Shown: piece by piece, positions 7,562 through 20,905 of the stretch | Position numbering within the stretch: the first letter of the stretch is position 1 | How the letters are laid out: every line of letters starts with the position of its first letter | Origin: Oscillospiraceae bacterium | GTDB lineage: Bacteria > Bacillota > Clostridia > Oscillospirales > Oscillospiraceae | Length of the DNA stretch: 64,000 nt | Direction: 5' to 3' | NCBI GenBank assembly: GCA_021768185.1 | Contig: JAETNP010000027.1 | Coordinates: 6,511-70,510 of the forward strand | Program-made: the position numbers and the translations under genes | Notes under the pieces: model-generated | Told to the model about the DNA's origin: nothing | The model's input: only the letters and a program-made list of their open reading frames with translations | Database searches by the model: none

Positions 7562-8653
7562 ATGAAACTTGGCATTGTGGGACTGCCCAACGTAGGCAAA
7601 TCGACCCTTTTCAACGCCATCACCAACGCCGGCGCGGAGAGCGCCAACTATCCCTTCTGCACCATCGACCCCAACGTAGGCATGGCAGCCGTTCCCGACC
7701 CCCGTCTGGACAAGCTCAGCGAGATGTACCATCCCAAGAAGACCACCCCCGCCGTGATCGAGTTCGTAGACATCGCGGGCCTGGTAAAGGGAGCCAGCAA
7801 GGGCGAGGGCCTGGGCAACAAGTTTCTCTCCAACATCCGCATGACGGACGCCATTGTCCATGTGGTGCGCTGCTTTGACGACGAGAACGTGATCCACGTA
7901 GAGGGCGGGGCGGACCCCATCCGTGACATCGACATCATCGACCTGGAGCTGGTGATGGCCGACGTGGAAATGGTGGAGCGGCGCATCGACAAGGCCCAGA
8001 AGGCCGCCAAGGGCGACAAGAAGTTCCTCAAGGAGGTGGAGGTCTTCCAGGGCCTGCTGGCCTGGCTCAACGACGGCAATGCCGCCCGCAGCTACGACTG
8101 CGACGAGGACACAAAAGCCGTCATCGCCACCAGCGACCTGCTGACCCTCAAGCCGGTGATTTACGCCGCCAACCTGGACGAGGACGGCTTCGCCAACCCG
8201 GAAGGGACCGCTTACTATCAGCAGGTCGCCCAGCGGGCTCAGGCTGAGGGGGCCCAGGTGATCCCCGTATGCGCCAAGCTGGAGGCGGAGATCGCCGAAC
8301 TGGAGGGCGAGGAGAAGGCCATGTTCCTGGAGGATCTGGGGGTCAGCGAGAGTGGTCTGGACCGTCTGGTAAAGGCCAGTTATACCCTGCTGGGGCTGAT
8401 TTCCTACCTGACCAGCGGCGAGGACGAGTGCCGGGCCTGGACGATCACCAGAGGCACCAAGGCTCCCCAGGCGGCGGGGAAGATCCACTCTGATTTTGAG
8501 CGGGGCTTCATCCGTGCGGAGGTCATTGCCTACGACGACCTGATGACCGTGGGCACCATGGCGGCGGCCCGTGAGAAGGGTATGATCCGCTCCGAGGGCA
8601 AGGAGTACGTGGTGAAGGATGGGGATATCATCCTGTTCCGCTTCAACGTCTGA
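7562..8653 (+). CDS. ychF: redox-regulated ribosome-binding ATPase YchF
   Basis: G1 motif GLPNVGKSTLFNAIT, a central coiled region, and the C-terminal TGS end KEYVVKDGDIILFRFNV. Confidence 0.95.
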   Translation: MKLGIVGLPNVGKSTLFNAITNAGAESANYPFCTIDPNVGMAAVPDPRLDKLSEMYHPKKTTPAVIEFVDIAGLVKGASKGEGLGNKFLSNIRMTDAIVHVVRCFDDENVIHVEGGADPIRDIDIIDLELVMADVEMVERRIDKAQKAAKGDKKFLKEVEVFQGLLAWLNDGNAARSYDCDEDTKAVIATSDLLTLKPVIYAANLDEDGFANPEGTAYYQQVAQRAQAEGAQVIPVCAKLEAEIAELEGEEKAMFLEDLGVSESGLDRLVKASYTLLGLISYLTSGEDECRAWTITRGTKAPQAAGKIHSDFERGFIRAEVIAYDDLMTVGTMAAAREKGMIRSEGKEYVVKDGDIILFRFNV

Positions 8654-9339
8654 TGCGTCGCCGTTTTGCTATCCTGGATGCCTGGCGCACTTTGTCCATC
8701 GTGCTGATGATTGCCTACCATTTTCTATACGATCTGTATATTTTCGGCATAATATCCGCTGATCAGCTGTTCTCCACGCCTCTGAACATCCTGGAGCGGT
8801 TCATCTGCTGCAGCTTCATTCTCCTGGCCGGGGCCAGTGCCCGGTTCTCCCGAAACAACCTGCGCCACGGACTCATCGTCCTGGCGGCGGGGGCAGTGGT
8901 GGAGATTGGTGCTGCCGTAGCCGGGCAGACCATCCGCTGGGGCGTGCTGATGCTGCTGGGGACGTCCATGGTGCTGTACCATTTTTCGGGAAAATTCCTG
9001 CAAAAGCTGCAGCCGGACAGTCTGACCGCGCTGTGCATCGGCCTCTATGTTTTTACAAACTGGTGGACCAAGGTCATGCCGGTATCTGTCGGCTGGCTGT
9101 ATCCTCTGGGGCTTACCGCCCCGGGATTCTACAGCGCGGATTATTTTCCCCTGCTGCCCTGGTTTTTCCTGTTTCTGATAGGGACCGTGCTGGGCGGATG
9201 GTGCCTGGAGCACCGGGAGAACAAAGTCCTGACCGCCGCCCTGCCCAGGGCGCTGACCTGGCCGGGGCGGCACAGCCTTATCATCTATGTCCTGCACCAG
9301 CCGGTGCTGTACGGCATCGCTTATCTTATCTGGGGGTGA
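8653..9339 (+). CDS. DUF1624-type (heparan-alpha-glucosaminide N-acetyltransferase-like) membrane protein
   Basis: Multi-TM protein. The N-terminus RFAILDAWRTLSIVLMIAYHFLYDL is typical of the family. TGATG overlap with ychF. Confidence 0.6.
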   Translation: MRRRFAILDAWRTLSIVLMIAYHFLYDLYIFGIISADQLFSTPLNILERFICCSFILLAGASARFSRNNLRHGLIVLAAGAVVEIGAAVAGQTIRWGVLMLLGTSMVLYHFSGKFLQKLQPDSLTALCIGLYVFTNWWTKVMPVSVGWLYPLGLTAPGFYSADYFPLLPWFFLFLIGTVLGGWCLEHRENKVLTAALPRALTWPGRHSLIIYVLHQPVLYGIAYLIWG

Positions 9340-9833
9340 GTACGACGCATATCCATATCAACAGCACTCTGATCTATCTGGAGAACGAGGCCGGGGAGTA
9401 CCTGATGCTCCACCGGGTCAAAAAGAAGAACGACATCAACCACGACAAATGGATCGGCGTAGGCGGCGGCTTCGAGTACGGCGAGAGTCCGGAGGAGTGC
9501 GCCATCCGGGAGACCTTTGAGGAGACCGGCCTGACCCTGACGGACTACCGCTTCCGGGGCATCGTCACCTTTGACTGCGAGGGACAGAAGTGTACCCAGT
9601 ACATGCACCTGTTCACCGCCTCCGCCTGGACGGGGGAGCTGACCGAGTGCAATGAGGGCGATTTGGAGTGGGTGCCCAAGGCGAAGGTCTGCGATCTTCC
9701 CATTTGGGAGGGGGACAAGATCTTCTTCCGCCTGCTGGAGGAGGACCGTCCCTTTTTCTCCCTGAAGCTGAGCTATGACGCAAAAGACGTCCTTCTCCGG
9801 GCGGTCCTGGATGGAAAGGAACTGCCGCTGTGA
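9336..9833 (+). CDS. NUDIX hydrolase (MutT/8-oxo-dGTPase-like)
   Basis: Nudix box GVGGGFEYGESPEECAIRETFEETGL. The likely GTG start at 9336 overlaps the upstream TGA (GTGA). Confidence 0.8.
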   Translation: MSTTHIHINSTLIYLENEAGEYLMLHRVKKKNDINHDKWIGVGGGFEYGESPEECAIRETFEETGLTLTDYRFRGIVTFDCEGQKCTQYMHLFTASAWTGELTECNEGDLEWVPKAKVCDLPIWEGDKIFFRLLEEDRPFFSLKLSYDAKDVLLRAVLDGKELPL

Positions 9834-10282
9834 AGGAGAAGCTGCTGGTCTCCGCCTGCCTGCTGGGAGAAAACTGCAAATATAACGGCGGGAACAACTA
9901 CACTCCCGCAGTAGAGGCGCTGCGGGAGCGCTTCGAGGTCATCCCCGTCTGTCCGGAGCAGCTGGGCGGCCTGCCCACGCCCCGGACCCCGTCGGAACGA
10001 GTAGGCGACAAGGTCCTGACCCGGGACGGTCGGGATGTAACGGAGGCCTTCCGGCGTGGAGCGGCGAAAACCCTGGCCATCGCCCAAGCGGAAGGCGTCA
10101 CCAGGGCCGTCTTCCAGGTCCGCAGTCCCTCCTGCGGCTGCGGTACGATCTACGACGGCACGTTCTCCGGCAAACTGGTTCCCGGAAAAGGCGTAACGGC
10201 CCAGCTTCTGGAGCAAAACGGCATTGAAATCTGCGACAGCACCCGGATCAACGAGCTTTTGGACATGGAAGGAGCGCTGTAA
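9830..10282 (+). CDS. DUF523 (TudS-like) protein
   Basis: VSACLLGENCKYNGG ... CPEQLGGLPTPR ... SPSCG pattern. The GTG start overlaps the Nudix stop. Confidence 0.7.
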   Translation: MKEKLLVSACLLGENCKYNGGNNYTPAVEALRERFEVIPVCPEQLGGLPTPRTPSERVGDKVLTRDGRDVTEAFRRGAAKTLAIAQAEGVTRAVFQVRSPSCGCGTIYDGTFSGKLVPGKGVTAQLLEQNGIEICDSTRINELLDMEGAL

Positions 10283-10283
10283 T

Positions 10284-10643
10284 ATGCCAACCATTTTCTT
10301 TGGGATGTTTTTCCTGATATTTTTCCTGATACTCGGAATGATTATCTTCACCATCATCAAGGGCATCGGCCAGTGGAACAAGAACAACCACTCCCCCCGC
10401 CTGACGGTTCCGGCCACGGTAGTCGCCAAGCGAGGGGATGTCAGCCATCACCACCACCAGGACGCGGGCGGCGTCGGCCATACCTCGTCCACCACCACCT
10501 ACTATGTGACCTTCCAGGTTGCCAGCGGCGACCGGATGGAGCTGTGCGTCGGCGGCACGGAGTACGGGATGCTGGCAGAGGGGGACTGCGGTGACCTCAC
10601 CTTCCAGGGCACCCGCTACCTGGGGTTTGAGCGGAGGTCCTGA
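10284..10643 (+). CDS. DUF2500-like single-TM protein
   Basis: ATG lies 1 nt after the upstream TAA. N-terminal TM helix, then TVPATVVAKR ... YYVTFQ ... GDRMEL ... GDLTFQGTRYLGF. Confidence 0.55.
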   Translation: MPTIFFGMFFLIFFLILGMIIFTIIKGIGQWNKNNHSPRLTVPATVVAKRGDVSHHHHQDAGGVGHTSSTTTYYVTFQVASGDRMELCVGGTEYGMLAEGDCGDLTFQGTRYLGFERRS

Positions 10644-10678
10644 GCAGGGCGTCAGGCAGAAAAAGCAGGAGGAATATC

Positions 10679-11212
10679 GTGGCAAACAAGCTGATTCTTT
10701 ATATTGCAATGTCCTTGGATGGATATATCGCTGAAAAAGACGGCAATATCCGTTTTTTGGAGGAAACGCCGGGTCCTGATCCGGACCTCGGCTATGAACG
10801 ATTCTACCAGTCCCTCCAAGCAGTTGTTATGGGCGGAAAGACATACCGGCAGATCAAAAACGAGCTTTCGCCGGAGAAGTGGCCCTATGAGGGGATGCCC
10901 TGCTATGTCTGCACGCGGCAGGAGCCCCCGGACGACTCCAACGTTCAGTTTACATCCCTGCCGCCGGGACGGCAGGTGCTGGAGCTTATCGCGCGGGAGC
11001 ACGCCGGAGATATCTGGCTCATGGGCGGCGGAGAGATCGTCCATGGGTTTATGCGGGACGGCCTTGTTGACCAATATTATATTTACGTTATGCCGGTCAT
11101 TCTCGGGGACGGTATCCCGCTGTTTCCGGCGGGATTTCCGAAGGTGGAGCTTGCGTTGGAGAGCTGTAAAAGCTTCGGGGAGATCGTTGAGCTGGTTTAC
11201 CGGAGGAGATAG
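10679..11212 (+). CDS. dihydrofolate-reductase-family (RibD C-terminal domain) protein
   Basis: KLILYIAMSLDGYIAEKDG ... VMGGKTY ... IWLMGGGEIV pattern. GTG start. Confidence 0.7.
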   Translation: MANKLILYIAMSLDGYIAEKDGNIRFLEETPGPDPDLGYERFYQSLQAVVMGGKTYRQIKNELSPEKWPYEGMPCYVCTRQEPPDDSNVQFTSLPPGRQVLELIAREHAGDIWLMGGGEIVHGFMRDGLVDQYYIYVMPVILGDGIPLFPAGFPKVELALESCKSFGEIVELVYRRR

Positions 11213-11217
11213 GGATA

Positions 11218-11259
11218 AATGCGCAGGGCGCGGAGCAAAAGCTCCGCGCCCTGCGCATT
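11218..11259. terminator. bidirectional hairpin terminator between convergent genes
   Basis: Perfect palindrome AATGCGCAGGGCGCGGAGC-AAAA-GCTCCGCGCCCTGCGCATT, followed by a T-rich run. Confidence 0.65.
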
Positions 11260-11289
11260 ATAAAACTCTTTTTCTTCCCGAAACAAGGG

Positions 11290-12402
11290 TCACTTGTATT
11301 TCTTCACGATCTCCGCCAGCTCGTCCCAGTGCTCTTCCATATCGCTCACCAGCTTGAACTGGGTACGGCAGCGGTCCAGGTTCTGACCGGCCCGAGTGGT
11401 GTGGAAATAGACATCTCCCTCCAGATAATCCGTCAAAAACCGGATGCCGCACTCCAACGTCATGAGCTTCGCGCCCCAGGGCAGGTAGTCGATCTCCGCC
11501 TCTGTCAGCGTACCGCCCGCGCCCTCCAGGAAAGCCCGGGTGTAGGTCTCAAAGAGGGAGACGTCCAGATTGACCTTACTCAGATCCGTCTCATCCTCCG
11601 CGCTGTGATTCGCCCCGAAGCGGATGGAATCTCCAAAATCGTTGATGGCCAGCCCCGGCATAACAGTGTCCAGATCAATGACGCACAGTCCCACGCCGGT
11701 CTTTTTGTCCATCAGGACGTTGTTCAGCTTGGTGTCGTTGTGGGTCACCCGCAGGGGCAGAACGCCGTCCCGGAGGGCCTTCAAGGCCACGGAGCAGTCG
11801 TTCTCACGGGCCAGAACGAAATCCAGCTCTTTCCGGCACTCCGCCGCCCGTCCCAGCTTGTCCGCGGCCATAGCGGCCTTCAGCTTTGCCAGCCGGTCCT
11901 CGGTGTCATGGAACCGGGGGATGGTCTCGTGGAGGGTCTGGGCGGGATATCCCTGCAAAAGCCGCTGGAAATGTCCGAAGGCCCGTCCGGAGGCCGCGAA
12001 CAGCTCCGGCGTCTCCGCCGTCTGATAGCAAATGGTATCCTCCACGAAGGGATATACCCGCCATGCGCCGTTCGCGCTGTCGGTGTAGTAGGGCTCCCCG
12101 TTCCGGGGCCGGATGACCCGCAGGGCCTCCCGCTCCCGGTCGCCGCCCCGGCTTTCGATCTCCCGGCCCAGGTACTCCGTGACGCCCAGAATATTCTCCA
12201 TAAGCTGGTCGGGCTGCTTGAAGGCGGCGGCGCTCATCCGCTGGAGGATGAACCTCCGGCAGCAGACATCCTCCGGCTGGGTGTGGACCACAAAGGTGTC
12301 GTTGATATGTCCCTGTCCGAACCGAATAGCGCCCACCACCGGCGCGCCGAAATCAAAGGCCGCCAGCACTTCCTGCAAATATGTCTCCGCCTGTGCCATC
12401 AT
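11290..12402 (-). CDS. aminoglycoside-phosphotransferase-fold sugar anomeric kinase (NahK/AmgK-like)
   Basis: GHINDTF nucleotide-binding region, catalytic HNDTKLNNVL, and IDLDT metal site. The likely start MMAQAE at 12402 overlaps the upstream stop (ATGATGA). Confidence 0.65.
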   Translation of the reverse strand: MMAQAETYLQEVLAAFDFGAPVVGAIRFGQGHINDTFVVHTQPEDVCCRRFILQRMSAAAFKQPDQLMENILGVTEYLGREIESRGGDREREALRVIRPRNGEPYYTDSANGAWRVYPFVEDTICYQTAETPELFAASGRAFGHFQRLLQGYPAQTLHETIPRFHDTEDRLAKLKAAMAADKLGRAAECRKELDFVLARENDCSVALKALRDGVLPLRVTHNDTKLNNVLMDKKTGVGLCVIDLDTVMPGLAINDFGDSIRFGANHSAEDETDLSKVNLDVSLFETYTRAFLEGAGGTLTEAEIDYLPWGAKLMTLECGIRFLTDYLEGDVYFHTTRAGQNLDRCRTQFKLVSDMEEHWDELAEIVKKYK

Positions 12403-13325
12403 TCCGCCTCCCACAGCCGGTCGGGATAGAGCCCCGACGCGGTCTTTTCCCGAATTGCGGCCTCCACCGCAGGCTTGTCCTCCCGGTAGGTGACGCCATA
12501 CCACTTATCGGTGCTGCGCAGCACCTTCACCCGGGCCTTGCCCTCCTCAATGAGCCAGCTCACCACGGTAGGGAGAAAATACTCCGCCTTGAGGGGATTC
12601 TCCGCCAGCGCCTTGTCCAGAAATGCGGGGAACCTGACCCATGTCTCGTCCAGAAAGCTGCGGTTGAAGCCCCACATGTTCATGGAGACAATGGTGTCCC
12701 CGGAGAGCTCCGTCCAGGTCTTCCCGTCGTCCTCGGTGTAGCGGGGGGGATCGCCCTTTTCGATCTTGGTGCGCTCGGTGACCCGGGCGAGGAAGTGGTC
12801 CTCCGTCTCCTCGCAGACCCCCCGCGCCACGGTGCCGTTTTCCGTCACGGTATTTTTCAGCAGGTAGCCCACCATGGCGTACTCGTACACATCCCCGTCC
12901 GGATGGACGCTGAGGTAGTCGTAGATCTCCTTAAAGGCCTCCGGTCCATAGTAGTCGTCGGCGTTGATAATGGCGAAGGGCCCGTCCACCGCATTCCGTG
13001 CCGCCAGAGCCGCCTGGGCGGTGCCCCAGGGCTTGGTCCGATCCGCCGGGGCGGCGTAGCCCTCCGGCAGGTCCTCCCGCAGCTGGTAAACATACCGCAC
13101 GTCCATGCACTTTTCCAGCCGGCGGCCCACCCGCTCCTTGAAGTCCGCCTCGATTTCCGGTTTGATGACGAATACCACCGTCTCAAACCCCGCCCGGCGG
13201 GCGTCATAAATGGAGTAGTCCAGGATCACCTGGTCATGGTTTCCCACGGGGTCCAGCTGCTTGAGTCCGCCGTAGCGGCTGCCCATACCTGCGGCCATAA
13301 TGACCAGTACCGGTTTCTTGTTCAT
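12399..13325 (-). CDS. sugar-1-phosphate nucleotidyltransferase
   Basis: N-terminal VIMAAGMGSRYGGLKQLDPVG signature. Translationally coupled to the kinase gene. Confidence 0.7.
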   Translation of the reverse strand: MNKKPVLVIMAAGMGSRYGGLKQLDPVGNHDQVILDYSIYDARRAGFETVVFVIKPEIEADFKERVGRRLEKCMDVRYVYQLREDLPEGYAAPADRTKPWGTAQAALAARNAVDGPFAIINADDYYGPEAFKEIYDYLSVHPDGDVYEYAMVGYLLKNTVTENGTVARGVCEETEDHFLARVTERTKIEKGDPPRYTEDDGKTWTELSGDTIVSMNMWGFNRSFLDETWVRFPAFLDKALAENPLKAEYFLPTVVSWLIEEGKARVKVLRSTDKWYGVTYREDKPAVEAAIREKTASGLYPDRLWEAE

Positions 13326-13418
13326 TTTCCTCTCTCCTTCTCAATATGCTCCCCTCCTGGGGGGAATCCATCTGTTTCCTATTCTATACGCGGGGACAGA
13401 AAATGGAAATAGACGATT

Positions 13419-14327
13419 CTACACATTACTTGCACGATCGTCCGGATATACGCCGCTGAGCTCCGAGAGCATTTTCACGCTGCGCTCATACTCGCTGGGG
13501 GACATGCCGGTAGCCTGCCGGAAGCGGCGGGAGAAGTAGTGCAGGGACTGGAACCCCAGCTGTCCGGCGATCTGGGTGAAGTTCAGCGTCCCCTCCCGGA
13601 TCATCCGCCGGGCGGCCTGGATCTTCAGTCCGGAGAAGTACTCCATGACGCCCCCGCCGGTATGGGCGTGGAAGAGCTTTTGCAGCTGGCTGCGGCCGAT
13701 CAGGTTGTCCTGGCAAATTTGCTCCAAAGTAAGCTGCCGGTCCAGGCGGGCGGCCAGATACTCCATCACCTGCCCCATGACGTCCCCGCCGTCCCTGGAG
13801 GACGCCTCCAGCCGGTCCGGGACGGACCTGCGGCGGACAAGTCGGATGAGCAGCTCCTCCAGCGCCGCGCACAGCAGCTGCTCTCCGCCGAAGGGGACCT
13901 GCTGCCGCCGTTCCAGCACAGCGGCGTAGGGGTCGTTCAGCGGCGTGGCAAAAGCTGCGGCACTCTCCGCCACGATCCGGGCCAGCAGGGCGCGCTCCGC
14001 CTCGCCCGCCTCCGCCGTCAGGCCCCGGAAATACGCCATCTCCGGGCCGTCACACTGGAAGCTCACCACCACCAGGTCCGGAGCTGTTCCCACAGCGGAG
14101 AAGGCGTGGAACTCCCCGGGGGCATGGAAGATGATCTCTCCCCGCCGCAGACGGCATGTCCTCTCCCCGGCGGTGACCCGGATGTCCCCCTTGTCCACGT
14201 ACAGCAGCTCCCAGAAGTCGTGGCGTTCTCCGGAGAAGGAGCAGCCTGCACCATATTCAAAATAGTGTACCGAATAGATTTCCCGCACCAGCAGCGGCCG
14301 GCGGGGGACCAGGGGCTGGTATTGCAT
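13419..14327 (-). CDS. AraC-family transcriptional regulator (cupin + HTH)
   Basis: N-terminal cupin-like sensor. C-terminal AraC HTH ... IAGQLGFQSLHYFSRRFRQATGMSPSEY. Confidence 0.85.
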   Translation of the reverse strand: MQYQPLVPRRPLLVREIYSVHYFEYGAGCSFSGERHDFWELLYVDKGDIRVTAGERTCRLRRGEIIFHAPGEFHAFSAVGTAPDLVVVSFQCDGPEMAYFRGLTAEAGEAERALLARIVAESAAAFATPLNDPYAAVLERRQQVPFGGEQLLCAALEELLIRLVRRRSVPDRLEASSRDGGDVMGQVMEYLAARLDRQLTLEQICQDNLIGRSQLQKLFHAHTGGGVMEYFSGLKIQAARRMIREGTLNFTQIAGQLGFQSLHYFSRRFRQATGMSPSEYERSVKMLSELSGVYPDDRASNV

Positions 14328-14370
14328 GGCGGCGCCTCCCTGCGGGAACCTTCGGCTCCCGCGTACCGGA

Positions 14371-14837: not shown

Positions 14838-15383
14838 ATGAGTAAGAAAATCGTAGTCATTACCGGCAGTCCCCGGAAGAACGGCAACAGTTTTGCCATG
14901 ACGGACGCGTTCATCCGGGCTGCCCAGGCCAAGGGCCACCAGATCACCCGCTTTGACGCGGCCATGAAAAATGTGGGCGGCTGCCGCGTCTGCGAGACCT
15001 GCTTCAAGACCGGGAAAGCCTGCTCCTTTGACGATGACTTCAACGCCATTGCCCCCGCCATTCTGGAGGCGGACGCGGTCGTCTTCACCATGCCGGTCTA
15101 CTGGTACGCCATCCCCGCCCAGATCAAAGCCGTGATCGACAAGCTGTTCTCCTTCGTTGTGGGCGGCAGGGACATCGCGGGCAAGGAGTGCGCCGTCATT
15201 GCCTGCTGCGAGGAGGAGGACCTGTCCGTCCTGGACGGCGTCCGCATCCCCATAGAGCGCTCCGCCGCGCTGCTGAAGTGGAAGATGGCGGGCGAGGTCA
15301 TGGTTCCCGGCGTATTGCACGCGGGCGATATCGCAAAGACTGACGGCTGCAAGCAGGCCGCGGCCCTGGCGGACAAGCTCTGA
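14838..15383 (+). CDS. flavodoxin-like fold NAD(P)H-dependent FMN reductase / iron-sulfur flavoprotein-like protein
   Basis: KIVVITGSPRKNGNSFAM motif. Divergent from the HxlR gene, which is a classical pairing. Confidence 0.75.
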   Translation: MSKKIVVITGSPRKNGNSFAMTDAFIRAAQAKGHQITRFDAAMKNVGGCRVCETCFKTGKACSFDDDFNAIAPAILEADAVVFTMPVYWYAIPAQIKAVIDKLFSFVVGGRDIAGKECAVIACCEEEDLSVLDGVRIPIERSAALLKWKMAGEVMVPGVLHAGDIAKTDGCKQAAALADKL

Positions 15384-15406
15384 TACTTTTTCCCGGCCAA
15401 ATCACA

Positions 15407-15445
15407 CGGCGGGATGCGCCCCTCTTTCCGGGGCACATCCCGCCG
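15407..15445. terminator. hairpin between convergent flavodoxin-like and HD genes
   Basis: ACGGCGGGATGCGCCCC-TCTTTCC-GGGGCACATCCCGCCGT, an imperfect long stem. Confidence 0.5.
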
Positions 15446-15457
15446 TACAATTTGCGC

Positions 15458-17713
15458 TTATGATGACCAGCCGGAAAGGTGCCGCTCAACAAAAAACTCC
15501 CGAATTGCGCCTCTCAACGCAGAGGCTTCCTTTTCCTTCTGGCGGACGTCCGTCGAAACCGTTCTGTAGTATAGATAAAAGTAGTAGCTGGTATCTGTGG
15601 AAATAGCCGTCCAGTCGGCCAGCAGCGGAATTTCGTCCAGCAGGGCCACCGTCCCGTCGCTGGCGACGATGAAGGTTTCATTCGCCTTGAGCCGCTTGGA
15701 TTTGTAACAGGCGTCCACGTAGACCAGATCCGCGATGCCGTCCAGCTCGCCGTTCGCACGGTGCTTCAGTTCGTCCAGCAGCTCGCTGCTCAGATAGCCC
15801 GCCTCCGCTCCGCGGTCATCCAGCCAGGGAAGGCTGGGGTGGCGCTGGGTGAGAAGGTACTGCTTGATCTTATGCCGCTTGTCAAGGGGGATCGCCTCAA
15901 AGAGCAGATCAAATTCTGCCAGGGATTTGTACAGGGACAACCGGTATTTTCTGCTCAGCAAATCCTCGCACAGCCGTCCCCACTCCGAATCGGCAAAGTT
16001 TCCGGCCGCGTAAGCGACTTTAATGGCCGTCCAGACATAGGAATCATCCAGCCGCTCCAGATTTTCAAAGTCCAGCCGCCAGGGCGGGAAGACTCCGGAC
16101 GCCTTGGACAGCACCTCCCGGGAGATCAGCGGAATCAAGAAATTCGCGTAATAGGTGACCTTGTGATGGGCGTAAATCCACAGGTATAAATAGTCCCGGG
16201 CTTCCAGCACGTTGGCGATCACATTGATCGCCTGCTTTTTAAAGCCGACGGAGAACTCGTTATAGGCGTTTTTATCGGGAATCCTTTTTTCGATCATCTC
16301 CCCCAGCAGGACCAGCTCATGGGTCTGCCCCGTGAGCTGTACGTCAAAGATCTTCATAGAGGATTTTGTGCGGAATTTCCCTTTGATCTCAATGTCGCAT
16401 AATCCGTTTACCTGCAATTCCGCCGCGTTTCCCATGGAGCTGTCCGTATGGACCACGAAATGGAAATCTTCGGATTCCACCTTTGCGTTTTCAATGCGGT
16501 AATCAAATGGAACCCTGTTCTTGAAATCAAGGGATTTATAGGGGGGATTTCCGGAGGTCTGGTCGATAATCCGCCCATCCTGCATAAGGAACGCGGCCTG
16601 GAATCTTGCGGGCTCCGCGTCCTCCGCGTAGGAAATCTTTCCGTGATCCACAGACTGCAGGGAGAGGAAGGTGCTGCCCTGTCGTATCCTGACGTCCGCG
16701 TCCTTTTTCAGCAGGAGGGTGCCGCGAAAGCGCCCGGATATCCGGAAGCAGTTCTCCTGATTATTGTTCATCAGGAGAAAGATCCCCCGGTTTTTCAGGT
16801 GAACATCCTCATAGAGCCGGTCCACATACCGGGTTTTAGGCACAATGCAGACCGCGCTCAGGAGGCGTTCAATATCAATTTTAATATTGCATATTCCGGA
16901 CATTTCCGTATCGCGGATCACATAATCCAGCTTGTCAACGTCAAAATTGCCCCCGTTGAGCAGTTCAATAAAGCAATTGCGGATTTGCTTTTCCGGTTGG
17001 AATCCCGTGTATCTCAGGCCCAGGATCATCCGCGCGATGAACGCCATATCGCTGTCAAGATCGGACTTGTCGATCCTGGGGGTGTTGCTGTAGTGTTCCG
17101 CGTACAAAATATTCCCTGTCAGCGGGTGCTGCTTCTCGAGCAGATCCGCCAGATCGTCAAACACCTTTTCGATAGCCGGCCGCATGTGGGTAAGAATATA
17201 CAGCGCGCCGATGATCTCATGGGGAGCGGCGTCGAGCCGCTCGATGTCTTCGCTCCCGGCCTCAAGCCGGCGCAGCTCCTCCGCCAGCCGCTCGTTCAGG
17301 TTGGTCGGCTCGCCGTTGGCGCCGCGGCTGTTCACCAGCACAATGCTCTCCAGCGCGTGGGAAAACGGAGCGTGTCCGATATCGTGCAGGAGGCAGGCGA
17401 TCAGAAAGAGCACCTTGTTTTTCGCCCAGAAGGTCAGCGAGCTGTTGTCGCTGCTGATTTTCCAGTAGTCCTCATGGAAGAAATTCTCCAGCAGCATATC
17501 CGCCGCTTTGCAGCCCAGGTGATAGACGCCCAGGGAATGGCTGAAGCGGTCATGCTTGGCGTTGGGATAGAGAATCCGCATACCCGTCTGATCAATATTC
17601 CGCAGCCGCTGAAACATTTCGGTGTCGATCAGATGGTTGACAAAGCACTTGGGAACCTTGATATATCCGTGTACCGCGTCCATAAAAAGCTTCACTTCTG
17701 GAAAATCAAACAT
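15458..17713 (-). CDS. SAMHD1-like HD-domain (d)NTP triphosphohydrolase-type protein with a ~450-aa unassigned C-terminal region
   Basis: Motifs DAVHGYIKV ... FQRLRNIDQTG ... HDRFSHSLGV ... LLHDIGHAPFSHALE ... DVDKLDYVIRDTEMSG. GGGGGAG RBS before the ATG at 17713. Confidence 0.75.
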   Translation of the reverse strand: MFDFPEVKLFMDAVHGYIKVPKCFVNHLIDTEMFQRLRNIDQTGMRILYPNAKHDRFSHSLGVYHLGCKAADMLLENFFHEDYWKISSDNSSLTFWAKNKVLFLIACLLHDIGHAPFSHALESIVLVNSRGANGEPTNLNERLAEELRRLEAGSEDIERLDAAPHEIIGALYILTHMRPAIEKVFDDLADLLEKQHPLTGNILYAEHYSNTPRIDKSDLDSDMAFIARMILGLRYTGFQPEKQIRNCFIELLNGGNFDVDKLDYVIRDTEMSGICNIKIDIERLLSAVCIVPKTRYVDRLYEDVHLKNRGIFLLMNNNQENCFRISGRFRGTLLLKKDADVRIRQGSTFLSLQSVDHGKISYAEDAEPARFQAAFLMQDGRIIDQTSGNPPYKSLDFKNRVPFDYRIENAKVESEDFHFVVHTDSSMGNAAELQVNGLCDIEIKGKFRTKSSMKIFDVQLTGQTHELVLLGEMIEKRIPDKNAYNEFSVGFKKQAINVIANVLEARDYLYLWIYAHHKVTYYANFLIPLISREVLSKASGVFPPWRLDFENLERLDDSYVWTAIKVAYAAGNFADSEWGRLCEDLLSRKYRLSLYKSLAEFDLLFEAIPLDKRHKIKQYLLTQRHPSLPWLDDRGAEAGYLSSELLDELKHRANGELDGIADLVYVDACYKSKRLKANETFIVASDGTVALLDEIPLLADWTAISTDTSYYFYLYYRTVSTDVRQKEKEASALRGAIREFFVERHLSGWSS

Positions 17714-17834
17714 AGGACTCCCCCTCTATGGCGGTGCATCCTCCCTTTTGCTTGGATGCGGAATCCGCCATGATGTTCAGCGGCGAGTGAAGCGGAGCGC
17801 ATGGGGCGGCCGCGCTTCAGCGCACAATCCCACT

Positions 17835-18179
17835 TTACGCGGCGTTCACAAATTTATGTACGATACCTGCCAGAGTTTGATCCAGCTCGTAATCGGAGAA
17901 GGCCATGTCCGTTCTGCCGGTATGCCGCAGATAGATCGTCTCGCCATCGACGTCCAGCGCGAAAATATCCCGATTATAGACCACGGTCCTTTCCAGCGCC
18001 TCAAAGTTTACATCAAAAGATATCTGATAATCCTTGAGCTTGCCCAGCTGCCAAAGCTCTTTGTAAATATAATTGAGCAGCTGCTGCAGCCGGTCCAGGG
18101 GGAGGTACTCCCTTCGATCCTCGCGCAAAAGGTTTACGATGATGGTTTTCGTGTCAACGAACTTTGGCATACTGTTCAT
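17835..18179 (-). CDS. 114-aa hypothetical protein, translationally coupled to the upstream ATPase gene
   Basis: The ATG overlaps the ATPase TGA (ATGA at 18176-18179). No recognisable motif. Confidence 0.55.
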   Translation of the reverse strand: MNSMPKFVDTKTIIVNLLREDRREYLPLDRLQQLLNYIYKELWQLGKLKDYQISFDVNFEALERTVVYNRDIFALDVDGETIYLRHTGRTDMAFSDYELDQTLAGIVHKFVNAA

Positions 18180-19921
18180 TTTTTGTCTCCTTCACTTGTT
18201 GCCTGTGGGATGTTTTCTTCCTCAGGTATGGATGATCCCGTCAGTTCTTGATAGCTCAAAGAAGAATTGGCGTACTGATTGAGGTAGAACGCCAATCGGA
18301 TTCCATTTTTGAACCGCTCCATGTCGCTGTCCGCCGTTGTCCGCTTGATCTTCCGAATTTCGGCCAGGGCGTCGTAATGGATGGTTTTGACGCCGTCCGG
18401 AACGGTTTTGAGGGAATTTGCCAACCCCTCCCGGCGGATCATATGGCTTACGATCTGGGGCTTTTCCGGGTGGGGCCTGTAAACGCAGTTTTCGCCGCCA
18501 AAGAGCGCCCGGGCTCCGTTGGGGGTCATCACCAGAAAGCCGTTGGCATAAGGCGCTTCCCCCACCGTCAGCTCCTCGCGTTCTACAATAATCAGCCAGC
18601 CGTTCTCCTTCAGGAGCTTTTCCACATAGGCCAGCTCCTCCGCCCATGTCGTCGGGTCGATCTCATGGAATACGTTGACCATCAGCACATAATCCGCCTG
18701 TCCGCGGATCTGTTCAAGGAGCGCATCCTTGTCGTTGAAGTAGCGCTTGGACGACGAGCCGTATGTATCCATGGAGCGTTTTGCCTCGGCGGCGTAGGTG
18801 TCATATTTATCGTAGGCGTAATACTGCGCCTGCTCCACGGCGCTTTTGCCGATCTGCTGGGAGAGCTCTTCCAGCAGCCTGCACTTTCCCACGCCGAAAT
18901 CCACGATGGTCTTTCCCTGCGCGAAGAACCGCTCCAGCAGATCGTTTTGCGGATTTCTCGGCAGAGCGGAAAAAACCTCCGGATCGGTCATGCACTGCGC
19001 CGCGAAAAAATTGCACGCGTACTCGTCCGGGGCCGCCATAAGCTGCCGGATGGCGAACCGGTTGTCCTCCGAGCCGATCAGGCCGGCCAGCAAATCACTG
19101 GAATTGCTTCTGGGCAGCCGGATTTCCCCTTTAGACAGATAGAGGATCGTCGTGCTGTGGTCGAAGACAGTCAAAAAGGAGATCAGCGCCAGGGAATGGG
19201 TGGAGATCCAGAACTGGGCGTCGGGGAACTTCTTCCGCAGGGTTTGGATCAGCTCGATCTGCGCCTCGGGATGCAGATGCAGTTCAGGCTCGTCCAACAG
19301 AAAGACGACGTTTTCATTCCGTTCGTTGCGGTAACAGGCCACCGCCATCCGGAGAAGATACTGCTGTCCCGGGGACAGGCCCGATTTCCACGTATCCATG
19401 CCGAACAGCTTGGGGCATCCGTTCTCGTCCTTAGTCAGCTCCAGCCGAAACGGCGCGGCGTACTCCGTGACAAATTTTTCCCATTCCGCGCCGTCCCGGT
19501 ACGCCTCGGAGTAGCCGTTTGCCATATCCTCCAGCAGGAGCAGCGCGTTCAGCGCGGTTTCCGCATAGTCGTATTTCTGCAGGAGAGCCGTCGCCTTGCT
19601 GATGACATACGGCGTATAGCCCGCCGGGGACTGGAGCTGTGCGTCGTAGTGGGAATAATTCACAAGCTTTATTTTGGAAACCGTTTCAGCCGTGAGCCGT
19701 TCTTCCTCCGTCCCCTCTCCCGTTCCGGGGATATACAGCTCCAGATCGCCGGAGTCCGTCCCCTTCCGCAGGTCGCCGACGGTTTGTTCCAGCAGCTTGA
19801 GGAGCCTTGTCTTGCCGGAACCGTTGCTCCCGGCAAGAACGACAATGTTTCCCAAGGGGATCTTCCCGGCTTTTTGCAGTCCGTTCAGCTCTTTTCTGAT
19901 CGCTATAGACGATATTTTCAA
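18176..19921 (-). CDS. ABC/OLD-type (AAA_15/21-like) ATPase fused to a class-I SAM-methyltransferase-fold domain
   Basis: Walker A GSNGSGKT, signature-like LSPGQQ, Walker B/D-loop VFLLDEPELHLHPE, H-loop ISTHS. The C-terminal half has MTase motif I IVDFGVGKC, plus YYAYDKYD, VLMVNVFHEI and LLKENGWLIIVE. Confidence 0.7.
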   Translation of the reverse strand: MKISSIAIRKELNGLQKAGKIPLGNIVVLAGSNGSGKTRLLKLLEQTVGDLRKGTDSGDLELYIPGTGEGTEEERLTAETVSKIKLVNYSHYDAQLQSPAGYTPYVISKATALLQKYDYAETALNALLLLEDMANGYSEAYRDGAEWEKFVTEYAAPFRLELTKDENGCPKLFGMDTWKSGLSPGQQYLLRMAVACYRNERNENVVFLLDEPELHLHPEAQIELIQTLRKKFPDAQFWISTHSLALISFLTVFDHSTTILYLSKGEIRLPRSNSSDLLAGLIGSEDNRFAIRQLMAAPDEYACNFFAAQCMTDPEVFSALPRNPQNDLLERFFAQGKTIVDFGVGKCRLLEELSQQIGKSAVEQAQYYAYDKYDTYAAEAKRSMDTYGSSSKRYFNDKDALLEQIRGQADYVLMVNVFHEIDPTTWAEELAYVEKLLKENGWLIIVEREELTVGEAPYANGFLVMTPNGARALFGGENCVYRPHPEKPQIVSHMIRREGLANSLKTVPDGVKTIHYDALAEIRKIKRTTADSDMERFKNGIRLAFYLNQYANSSLSYQELTGSSIPEEENIPQATSEGDKK

Positions 19922-20182
19922 TTCCTATCTCCCGCCCTTGCTGCCGTATTTGATCCGTTCTGCCCGCCGCCGCGGACGGCGGCAGCCGCGAAACATGGCA
20001 CATATGACTCCCGCCAATGGAGGAAAGGGGGAAACGCGAACCGGCCTATCCGTCGATCTTTGCTTGACATACTAGATATAGTAGCAAAAGATTACCTGAA
20101 ACGCAAGAGGGAAATGGGACAATCCCGTAAAAATCCTCTTGGGGCATAAGCCGCGATCAGGCGCATTCCCTGGGGCCGCGCG

Positions 20183-20905
20183 TCAATCCATCCGCATGAA
20201 CCCCGTCCGTGCCGTCCGCCGCTCGAATTCCGCCAGCCCCTCCCGGAAGAGATCCACCGCCGCCTCGCCCTCGCCCCGGCGGATATGGTCGGTAAACCCC
20301 CGCAGCCGCTCCAGGCAGGACGCCGCGCCGAAGACCTCGATGTATTCCCGCCAGAACTCCAGGCTCACCGGTGAAAAGGCGTTGAGGATCAGGGGCGTAA
20401 TGGAGTTTCCGCTGAGGAAGGCGACGGTGCGGTGGTAGCGGAACAGCGCGTTGGCGAAGGGATATACCCCCTCCTTCGACGCCTCTTCCGCCTGCCGGTA
20501 CAGATCCTCCAGCTTCTCCAGGTCCTCCCCGGTATGGCAGGCGGCCAGATCCAGGAAGGCGGGACCCTCCAGATAGTAGCGGACCTTCAGGATACTGCGG
20601 CAGGTCTTGGCGTCCAGCTGTCCGCCGTGGTAGTGCATGATGGCCAGGAGGGTGTCCAGCGTTCCCGTCTGGGCGTAGTCCGCCACGGACACGCCCCGGC
20701 GGCTGGTTACATCCAGAAACCCCAGCCGGTGCAGCTCCCGGACGCCCTCATGGACGGCGGTTTTGCTGATTTTCATCTCATCCGCCAGCTCCCGCTCCGT
20801 AGGCAGCCGGTCCCCCGGGCGCAGCTGGCCGGAGAGGATCATGCCCACGATCTGCTGCACGAACAGCTCCCGGATGGAAGGCGCAACGATTTCCTTGAAT
20901 TCCAT
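20183..20905 (-). CDS. GntR-family (FadR/FCD-type) transcriptional regulator
   Basis: HTH LPTERELADEMKISKTAVHEGVRELHRLGFL plus a helical FCD domain. Start at MEFKE with AAAGGAGGG RBS. Confidence 0.85.
   Translation of the reverse strand: MEFKEIVAPSIRELFVQQIVGMILSGQLRPGDRLPTERELADEMKISKTAVHEGVRELHRLGFLDVTSRRGVSVADYAQTGTLDTLLAIMHYHGGQLDAKTCRSILKVRYYLEGPAFLDLAACHTGEDLEKLEDLYRQAEEASKEGVYPFANALFRYHRTVAFLSGNSITPLILNAFSPVSLEFWREYIEVFGAASCLERLRGFTDHIRRGEGEAAVDLFREGLAEFERRTARTGFMRMD

Follow-up and report, generated by a model that had tools for sequence, protein, structure and literature searches.

An ABC-type ATPase–methyltransferase fusion in a conserved three-gene cassette with a SAMHD1-like HD protein, a candidate defence system from an Oscillospiraceae bacterium

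To our knowledge, ATP-binding cassette (ABC) ATPases of one clan are central to Septu, PARIS, Gabija and type I-A retrons, and in all of these systems the output is a nuclease. In PrrC, RloC and OLD, the ABC ATPase forms the N-terminal part of the chain and controls an enzymatic domain at the C-terminus, as may be the case in the protein described here, and this second domain is again a nuclease (anticodon nuclease, TOPRIM). Here, we analyse a cassette from an Oscillospiraceae bacterium in which an ATPase of this clan is instead joined to a predicted class I S-adenosylmethionine (SAM)-dependent methyltransferase. This fusion is encoded next to a 114-residue protein and an HD-domain protein related to the human antiviral enzyme SAMHD1. 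The cassette lies on the minus strand of the window, by which we mean the whole stretch of 64,000 nucleotides that was analysed (GenBank assembly GCA_021768185.1, contig JAETNP010000027.1, positions 6,511 to 70,510); all coordinates refer to this window unless a locus is named.

By structure and by profile, the best neighbour of the N-terminal domain of the fusion is PtuA of Septu and type I-A retrons (PDB 9e8z, 9nnb, 8eea). As with PtuA and PtuB in Septu, an AAA_15/21 ATPase is encoded beside a putative effector. However, the HNH partner PtuB is absent from the cassette, where the neighbours are the 114-residue protein and an HD hydrolase, and the ATPase lacks the long insertion of PtuA and is joined to a methyltransferase. 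The fusion scores 52.5 bits against an NCBIfam PtuA cut-off of 500, which places it outside Septu. AriA of PARIS and GajA of Gabija are ATPases of the same clan (PADLOC AriA, E 1e-18; PDB matches). Like the cassette, both systems are mobile and occur in defence islands, and Gabija genes lie directly beside some relatives of the fusion. Yet neither TOPRIM nor DUF4435 occurs anywhere in the cassette, and AriA models match the ATPase half only, so that the cassette is not a PARIS system. MADS also combines an ATPase with methylation, and its MAD3 protein matches the ATPase half of the fusion (PADLOC mad3, E 3.5e-15; NCBIfam, E 2.4e-10), but the score is 40 bits against an NCBIfam cut-off of 420, and MADS has a separate DNA methyltransferase and many more genes, none of which is present at the cassette. 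No sequence match to PrrC, RloC or OLD surfaced in the searches run on the fusion.

As for the HD partner, its fold and its H..HD..D and HE residues are common to deoxynucleoside triphosphate (dNTP) triphosphohydrolases of the SAMHD1/EF1143/BT4208 type. With 751 residues, it is nevertheless some 270-380 residues longer than the solved bacterial enzymes (371-480 residues) and also exceeds human SAMHD1 (626 residues); compared with SAMHD1 and EF1143 it adds an all-β insertion (residues 288-492) and a C-terminal extension. It differs from the single-gene dGTPase defence of PADLOC, to which its match is partial, in that the HD gene is always found in a three-gene cassette. In PARIS, the clan ATPase releases an effector upon sensing phage anti-defence factors (PMC11464382), while Clover, composed of a dGTPase (CloA) and a nucleotidyltransferase (CloB), is an HD dNTPase under the control of a ligand-making partner, which produces a nucleotide that gates the effector; depletion of dNTPs is an established antiviral mechanism, for bacterial dGTPases as for Clover (PMC12265719). 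Clover is the closest precedent for a methyltransferase that would make or modify a regulatory ligand. However, no Pol-β-type nucleotidyltransferase is found in the cassette, in which the partner is an ATPase–methyltransferase and there is a third, small protein, so that it is not a Clover system, nor is the HD partner a CloA. Assignment to a known system was rejected altogether, since PADLOC, NCBIfam and PHROGs match only the ATPase half or match partially.

The fusion protein and its two predicted enzymatic halves

The fusion gene occupies positions 18176-19921 of the minus strand and encodes 581 residues from a TTG start codon. An initial annotation, which named no strand, had proposed here an unusual fusion of an OLD/ABC-type ATPase with a class I methyltransferase. 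All the motifs that it quoted are present in the minus-strand product; the plus-strand translation of the same interval contains a stop codon and none of them. The parts of the fusion are as follows.

19112..19921, minus strand: predicted ABC-type ATPase domain, residues 1-270, with Pfam AAA_21 and AAA_15 above their cut-offs
18932..19111, minus strand: inter-domain linker, residues 271-330, with F306, C310 and Q325 (DPQ) as family-specific invariants
18422..18931, minus strand: predicted class I SAM-dependent methyltransferase core, residues 331-500, from Pfam, conservation, Foldseek and a PDB profile search
18227..18421, minus strand: predicted C-terminal helical hairpin, residues 501-565, with conserved G540, F545, Q549 and an ANA motif

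The N-terminal half matches AAA_21 with 58.1 bits (Pfam cut-off 27) and AAA_15 with 50.0 bits (cut-off 32.1). Its Walker A motif GSNGSGKT corresponds to residues 31-38, LSPGQQ to 182-187, the Walker B stretch FLLDEPELHLHPE to 207-219 and the H-loop STHS to 240-243. In the alignment on which conservation in the fusion was assessed (26 homologues, 39-72% identity), the invariant residues include G31, N33, G34, G36 and K37, the Q-loop region S90-Q97 with Q97 itself, LSPGQ (182-186), D210-E211-P212-E213 of the Walker B/D-loop, H215-H217 and H242 of the H-loop. When the AlphaFold2 (AF2) model of the fusion was compared to the PDB with Foldseek, PtuA and retron ATPases were matched at probability 1.00, and PtuA, AriA and GajA are the neighbours of this half in the PDB profile search and Foldseek taken together. 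The N-terminal half is thus predicted to be an ABC-type ATPase of the AAA_21/AAA_15 kind (the PtuA/AriA/GajA/OLD clan) with its catalytic machinery intact. The protein is nevertheless not an OLD nuclease, because Pfam detects no TOPRIM domain in the fusion or in neighbouring proteins and the C-terminal half is a methyltransferase.

The C-terminal half exceeds the Pfam cut-offs for Methyltransf_12 (33.6 bits versus 30) and Methyltransf_23 (28.0 versus 27), and reaches 23 bits for Methyltransf_25, below the cut-off of 27. It contains IVDFGVGKC at residues 339-347, YYAYDKYD at 366-373, VLMVNVFHEI at 412-421 and LLKENGWLIIVE at 436-447. Motif I reads D341-x-G-x-G-x-x-R348 and motif IV N416-V-F/L-H-E-I421, and there is an invariant G454-E455 loop. 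In all 26 homologues, D341, G343, G345, R348, A369, N416, V417, H419, E420, I421, W426, E447, G454, E455 and P457 are unchanged. Residue 371, at the end of strand 2, is Asp in 22 of the 26, Asn in three and Glu in one, and an acidic residue after this strand is present in most distant relatives. The same methyltransferase core is invariant among relatives at 22-28% identity, and the ATPase and SAM motifs are likewise unchanged in relatives that share 22-36% identity. Averaged over sequence pairs, identity is 0.51 in the ATPase domain and 0.49 in the methyltransferase core. Since the two halves are conserved equally strongly, the methyltransferase half is not decaying, which disfavours the option, raised in the initial annotation, of a degenerate ligand-binding domain.

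Structural modelling agrees with the Pfam results. The AF2 model has a mean predicted local distance difference test (pLDDT) score of 81, residues 330-450 mostly scoring 81-96, and in residues 338-448 strands and helices alternate in the Rossmann manner. Among its Foldseek matches at probability 1.00 are the class I methyltransferases 4ine, 5f8c, 3mcz and 2r3s. Searched against the PDB, a profile of the C-terminal half finds enzymes of the small-molecule type, namely the N-methyltransferase 9we4, the type 11 methyltransferase 3i9f and AprA MT2, as well as 6d6y and a juvenile-hormone acid methyltransferase. This half does not belong with the DNA methyltransferases, since its motif IV is NV(L/F)HEI rather than (D/N/S)PP(Y/F) and no target-recognition domain is found, and the fusion has no Pfam match to N6_Mtase, MethyltransfD12, N6_N4_Mtase or DNA_methylase. 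Of the other roles suggested in the initial annotation, marking of self DNA is therefore disfavoured as well, whereas modification of a nucleotide signal or of RNA may apply. As judged from these features, the C-terminal half is an apparently intact class I SAM-dependent methyltransferase of the small-molecule (Methyltransf_11/12/23/25) type. We infer that it binds SAM, and it is probably catalytic. Structure prediction with Foldseek and the conservation of SAM-binding residues, both of which the initial annotation had named as checks, thus bear out its proposal of an ATPase–methyltransferase fusion, together with an architecture that homologues share.

The two remaining segments have no Pfam match at E <= 5. 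Residues 271-300 of the linker are predicted to be disordered (pLDDT <50). The hairpin, modelled as helices 503-527 and 533-561, is conserved even among distant fusions.

The fusion is far from isolated. A search of 5.8 billion proteins returned 168 relatives; the best 120 of these are 40-98% identical and mostly full length (546-593 residues, a few truncated), the ATPase being present in all and a methyltransferase Pfam record in most. In a profile search of 1.84 billion representatives of 50% identity clusters, 744 clusters from many phyla matched at E <= 1e-30, and relaxing the threshold to E <= 1e-10 raised this to no more than 1118. Among the matches listed, nearly all span the second half of the ATPase through to the end of the methyltransferase, and most proteins have 600-650 residues. 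When one genome per species was scanned, full-length relatives at 23-31% identity turned up in Bacteroidota, Lachnospiraceae, Planctomycetota, Patescibacteria, Myxococcales and a rumen alphaproteobacterium, and Pfam confirmed the same two-domain architecture in 10 distant relatives. Compared profile to profile, the clade of the window and the distant fusions match with 100% probability (E 5e-86 over 543 columns), and the methyltransferase residues and linker residues F306, C310 and Q325 are invariant across both clades. These two observations argue that the architecture is ancient and monophyletic, which rules out a chance local fusion. The fusions are therefore one large, uncharacterised, patchily distributed family; the few source names recovered for its members are "AAA family ATPase" and "predicted ATPase." The description of the fusion as unusual holds in that the architecture is uncatalogued, but it is not rare, as the 744 clusters attest. 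One Lachnospiraceae relative, at L014 3936-6527, has 863 residues, including an extra C-terminal extension of ~280 residues without a Pfam match.

The three-gene cassette and its HD partner

The cassette comprises the fusion gene, the small gene and the HD gene, all on the minus strand. Its two protein partners, the 114-residue protein and the SAMHD1-like HD enzyme, are the decisive context of the fusion and were absent from the initial annotation. The HD gene (15458-17713, 751 residues) gives a Pfam HD match, and its parts and the other elements of the locus are as follows.

19922..20182 (261 nucleotides), minus strand: upstream intergenic region between a GntR-family gene and the cassette, which holds a GGGAG ribosome-binding site
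17835..18179, minus strand: gene for the 114-residue protein, of no known family, with a homologue at the same position in every cassette examined
17714..17834 (121 nucleotides), minus strand: spacer separating the small and HD genes, specific to this genome, with no Rfam match
16853..17713, minus strand: predicted N-terminal catalytic lobe of the HD protein, residues 1-287, of the SAMHD1/EF1143 type
16238..16852, minus strand: predicted all-β insertion of the HD protein, ~205 residues (288-492), AF2 pLDDT mostly 84-96, without a Pfam match
15458..16237, minus strand: C-terminal lobe of the HD protein, residues 493-751 plus the stop codon, in which the SAMHD1/EF1143 fold is predicted to resume, followed by an α/β extension
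15398..15454, no strand: inverted repeat I1 between the convergent HD and FMN-reductase genes, with 25-nucleotide arms that are 84% complementary and a 7-nucleotide loop

The order of a fusion, a protein of ~112-122 residues and an HD protein of ~734-755 residues is kept in all ten distinct contexts examined, with unrelated flanks; these contexts are the window and loci L001-3, L004, L005/6, L007, L008, L098/99, L100/101, L102 and L103. The three proteins co-diverge, Mantel r being 0.91 for fusion and HD protein, 0.81 for fusion and small protein and 0.82 for small and HD proteins (permutation p ~0.001), a signal of which two close pairs contribute a large share. The cassette is a conserved, co-diverging and horizontally mobile three-gene unit. 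In the loci examined for the distant, larger fusions, no HD or small-protein partner was detectable.

As for the HD protein, H59, H110-D111, H114, H119, H165-E166, D258/D260/D263 and R267-D268 are invariant in 25 homologues, and the positions of the metal ligands (H..HD..D) and of the HE dyad align with those of 2q14 and SAMHD1. A profile built on these homologues matches 2q14 (3e-27), EF1143 (2o6i, 2e-23), many SAMHD1 entries (to 1e-15) and the Caenorhabditis elegans SAMHD1 orthologue 6pwy. The alignment with 2q14 runs in three collinear segments (residues 6-147, 246-288 and 494-587) and skips the all-β insertion. The AF2 model, with a pLDDT of 85 and a predicted template modelling (pTM) score of 0.83, gives Foldseek matches to EF1143, 3irh, 4lrl and SAMHD1 with target-normalised template modelling (TM) scores of 0.60-0.69, E being 1e-10 for 3irh, 4lrl and SAMHD1. 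Neither the insertion nor the C-terminal lobe has a Pfam match at E <= 5. By sequence and modelled fold, the partner is a SAMHD1/EF1143-type enzyme in which all the catalytic residues are kept, and it is predicted to be a SAMHD1-like dNTP hydrolase.

The small protein has 28 invariant residues in 15 sequences and no significant match in Pfam, PHROG, PADLOC or PDB. Two candidate counterparts outside the cassette, the additional insert present in the larger stand-alone fusions and a 113-residue open reading frame downstream of a Lachnospiraceae relative, were compared with it and are unrelated. Its ATG start codon overlaps the stop codon of the fusion gene as ATGA, so that the two genes are translationally coupled. 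The distance to the HD gene ranges in other cassettes from an 8-nucleotide overlap to 28 nucleotides; since the 121-nucleotide spacer is peculiar to this genome, it is unlikely to be essential to the system.

The start of the fusion gene is sound, because its homologues in the 26-sequence alignment begin with MKISSI at the point where the fusion has (L)KISSI. A GGGAG Shine-Dalgarno sequence lies at 19929-19933 on the minus strand, 7 nucleotides upstream of the TTG. A plus-strand open reading frame of 633 codons (18248-20149), antisense across the whole fusion gene, was taken to be spurious because homologues support the minus-strand gene. Consensus scans found no sigma-70 promoter in 19922..20182, and no convincing promoter or terminator on the strand of the cassette; Rfam gave no matches within 15000-20400 of the window. 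The hairpin at 15398-15454 is probably a bidirectional terminator that closes the cassette.

Distribution, mobility and genomic neighbourhoods

The fusion occurs in a single genome, that of the window, among 41 related genomes that include 24 other species of the same genus, and the Bacteroidota-type relative is likewise found in one of 121 genomes of its class. The GC content at third codon positions is 0.64-0.73 in the cassette versus 0.84-0.89 in the flanking genes, and total GC content is 0.548 in the cassette versus 0.604 in the window. By composition and distribution, the cassette was horizontally acquired. The adjacent GntR gene has orthologues in four genomes of the same genus, and in the three of these with readable downstream DNA similarity does not extend past the stop codon of GntR, and the genes beyond it differ. 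Downstream of the conserved GntR/Fe-S oxidoreductase pair, these loci (L094-L096) carry either NUDIX and response regulator genes, a gene for an SLH protein, or a LytTR two-component system. In one same-genus genome, the block equivalent to 7562-14339 of the window is inverted relative to GntR. An empty-site comparison with the three genomes did not demonstrate a clean insertion scar, and no flanking direct repeats of note were found around the cassette. Searches with tblastn at 1e-10 gave no matches in 50,697 phage and 72,556 plasmid records, and IMG/VR contigs yielded matches to ATPase fragments only, with no copies of the cassette.

Several of the contexts lie among defence or mobile-element genes. 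At L100, the cassette follows Gabija (GajA with an OLD-TOPRIM domain and a UvrD-type GajB) and DarT/NADAR genes; at L001-L003, it adjoins a Cap4_nuclease gene; at L098, IS66 TnpB, Bro-N and RHH genes are nearby; at L102, an HTH_3/Peptidase_M78 (ImmA/IrrE-like) gene ends 6 nucleotides before the fusion gene; and at L103, the cassette lies between smpB and parAB. Among distant fusions, the one at L020 precedes a PDDEXK_4 nuclease gene and an N6_Mtase/HSDR_N gene. At L009 767-6262, in a metagenome-assembled genome of a rumen alphaproteobacterium, a 623-residue distant fusion is encoded end to end with GajA-like (AAA_15 plus OLD TOPRIM) and UvrD-type GajB-like proteins, the gene junctions being a 1-nucleotide gap and a 1-nucleotide overlap; this locus may be a three-gene Gabija variant with the fusion as an extra component.

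Some of these loci have further features of their own. The island upstream at L100 (1-8671) holds genes for a DEAD/ResIII helicase, a 557-residue AAA_15/21 ATPase, Gabija (GajA, GajB), DarT and a NADAR-DarT1 protein, and an IS21-like fragment. In the three assemblies of L001-L003 (5091-7827), a gene for a 560-residue protein of unknown family overlaps that of the 356-residue Cap4_nuclease, the two being divergent to the cassette; this pair could be an uncharacterised two-gene module. Upstream at L102 (3455-8995) are genes for a stand-alone class I methyltransferase, a TauE-family protein, a SAM synthetase (MetK) and a DNA_alkylation protein; the SAM synthetase gene may be nearby by chance or may have a bearing on a system that depends on SAM.

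A candidate defence function and its rivals

The reading that we favour, and for which we see the case as evenly balanced, is that the cassette is a hitherto undescribed system against phages or mobile elements in which the ATPase–methyltransferase would sense or regulate and the HD enzyme would deplete dNTPs. By analogy with PtuA, AriA and GajA of Septu, PARIS and Gabija, and with Clover, sensing or regulation would fall to the fusion, and the HD enzyme would act as effector, its hydrolysis of dNTPs starving the replication of invading DNA. More speculatively, the methyltransferase might methylate a nucleotide-like ligand by which the HD enzyme is gated, or else act on a macromolecule as a second effector, and the small protein might be an adaptor or an inhibitor within the complex.

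Several observations weigh against this reading. The neighbours of the cassette in the window are ordinary regulatory and redox genes rather than defence genes, and about half of the ten contexts lack recognisable defence or mobile-element neighbours. In several Bacteroidota genomes, the relative is a lone gene with housekeeping neighbours such as alaS, clpB and an M1 peptidase gene; a housekeeping role for these relatives was nonetheless rejected, because of their presence in only one of the 121 genomes of the class. Since stand-alone fusions work without an HD partner, a model in which the fusion is a sensor for the HD enzyme is not general, and because these relatives manage without that enzyme, the target of the fusion is probably something general. 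The methyltransferase is of a type typical of small-molecule metabolism. No PADLOC, NCBIfam or PHROG model covers the whole fusion, the small protein or the cassette, and the only significant PADLOC match of the HD protein is a partial one to the dGTPase model (residues 29-123, E 1.1e-7). The pTM of the fusion model is 0.52, so that the relative orientation of the two domains is not fixed by it; this orientation and the two-domain nature of the query account for low whole-chain TM scores. As for novelty, no description of the fusion or of the cassette was found in PADLOC v2, NCBIfam, Pfam, PHROGs or the full-text literature, a survey that left two possibly relevant comparative-genomics surveys uncovered.

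Two alternatives give the methyltransferase half a different part in immunity. The fusion might itself be a complete abortive-infection or defence unit, with ATPase and effector in one chain as in PrrC, RloC or OLD; its methyltransferase would be the effector and, once infection is sensed, would methylate tRNA, rRNA, protein or invading nucleic acid, with the HD enzyme of this clade as an added second effector. This would fit the fact that most family members (~600-680 residues) have no HD partner and are often isolated genes, the invariance of N416, H419, E420, W426, E447 and G454-E455 in both clades, a weak match to a tRNA methyltransferase PHROG (phrog_4752, E 3.4e-7) and the position of fusions beside Gabija-like (L009) or restriction-modification-type (L020) genes. 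However, Pfam recognises no RNA- or DNA-binding domain in the fusion, the nearest solved methyltransferases act on small molecules, and the strict co-divergence with the HD enzyme implies tight functional coupling in this clade; we also know of no class I methyltransferase that serves as a defence effector. We regard this alternative as unlikely. It is quite improbable, in our view, that the domain is instead a sensor or guard of SAM that transfers no methyl group, a drop in SAM (caused, for example, by phage SAM-degrading enzymes) switching on the ATPase and releasing the HD enzyme. Within the domain, the SAM-binding motifs are indeed the most strongly conserved, neither a catalytic residue nor a substrate can be assigned, and clan ATPases do release effectors upon phage anti-defence factors, as in PARIS (PMC11464382). 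But NVLHEI, W426 and G454-E455 lie outside the SAM pocket and are invariant over more than 70% divergence, which exceeds the needs of a simple sensor, and the stand-alone members would be sensors without an effector.

The cassette might also be non-immune, either a nucleotide-metabolism or house-cleaning module, in which the methyltransferase handles methylated or non-canonical nucleotides and the HD hydrolase clears them, or a toxin-antitoxin-like addiction module that does no more than maintain itself. Enzymes of the EF1143 type have housekeeping roles in dNTP homeostasis (PDB 2o6i, 3irh), the neighbours are ordinary in the window and in several Bacteroidota genomes, and the small coupled protein could be an antitoxin-like inhibitor. 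Such a role sits poorly with the extremely patchy distribution (one of 41 and one of 121 genomes), the foreign composition of the cassette, its recurrence within defence or mobile-element islands and the overwhelming association, in PADLOC, of the clan of the ATPase with defence; we hold it to be rather improbable. Hardly credible is a restriction-modification-like arrangement in which the methyltransferase marks self DNA, as the initial annotation had offered as one option, and the HD protein is a Cas3-like nuclease acting on unmarked DNA. Nuclease activity does occur among HD domains, the HD protein matches Cas3 weakly in PADLOC (E 0.015), and the methylation-associated MADS uses a related ATPase, as its MAD3 matches indicate. 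However, the fusion lacks any match to DNA methyltransferase families, their motif IV and a target-recognition domain, and the HD protein is of the SAMHD1/EF1143 type over its whole core, HE dyad included.

A bolder reading, and one that we think unlikely to hold, is that the fusions form a new class of immune component, made up of ABC-ATPase sensors whose output is methyl transfer rather than nucleic-acid cleavage. The methyltransferase of the HD-linked clade would then produce or remove a methylated nucleotide-like ligand by which the SAMHD1 homologue is gated, and in the stand-alone clade methylation would disable a host or phage target.

What is new here is that an ATPase of this clan is joined to a SAM methyltransferase, conserved and apparently active, in the place normally taken by a nuclease. 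In one clade, this fusion invariably comes with a bacterial relative of human SAMHD1, an antiviral enzyme. The prospects that the cassette is an ABC-ATPase-governed defence with a dNTPase effector, a methyltransferase replacing the usual nuclease, are to our mind about equal either way. Should the cassette prove to be immune, ATPase-governed immunity would gain a methylation-based step, the switching of SAMHD1-type dNTPases by partner proteins would have a tractable bacterial model, and a role would be found for a sizeable gene family, mainly from gut Clostridia, now labelled only "AAA family ATPase." If it is not, the fusion would still mark an unknown ATP-dependent methylation activity.

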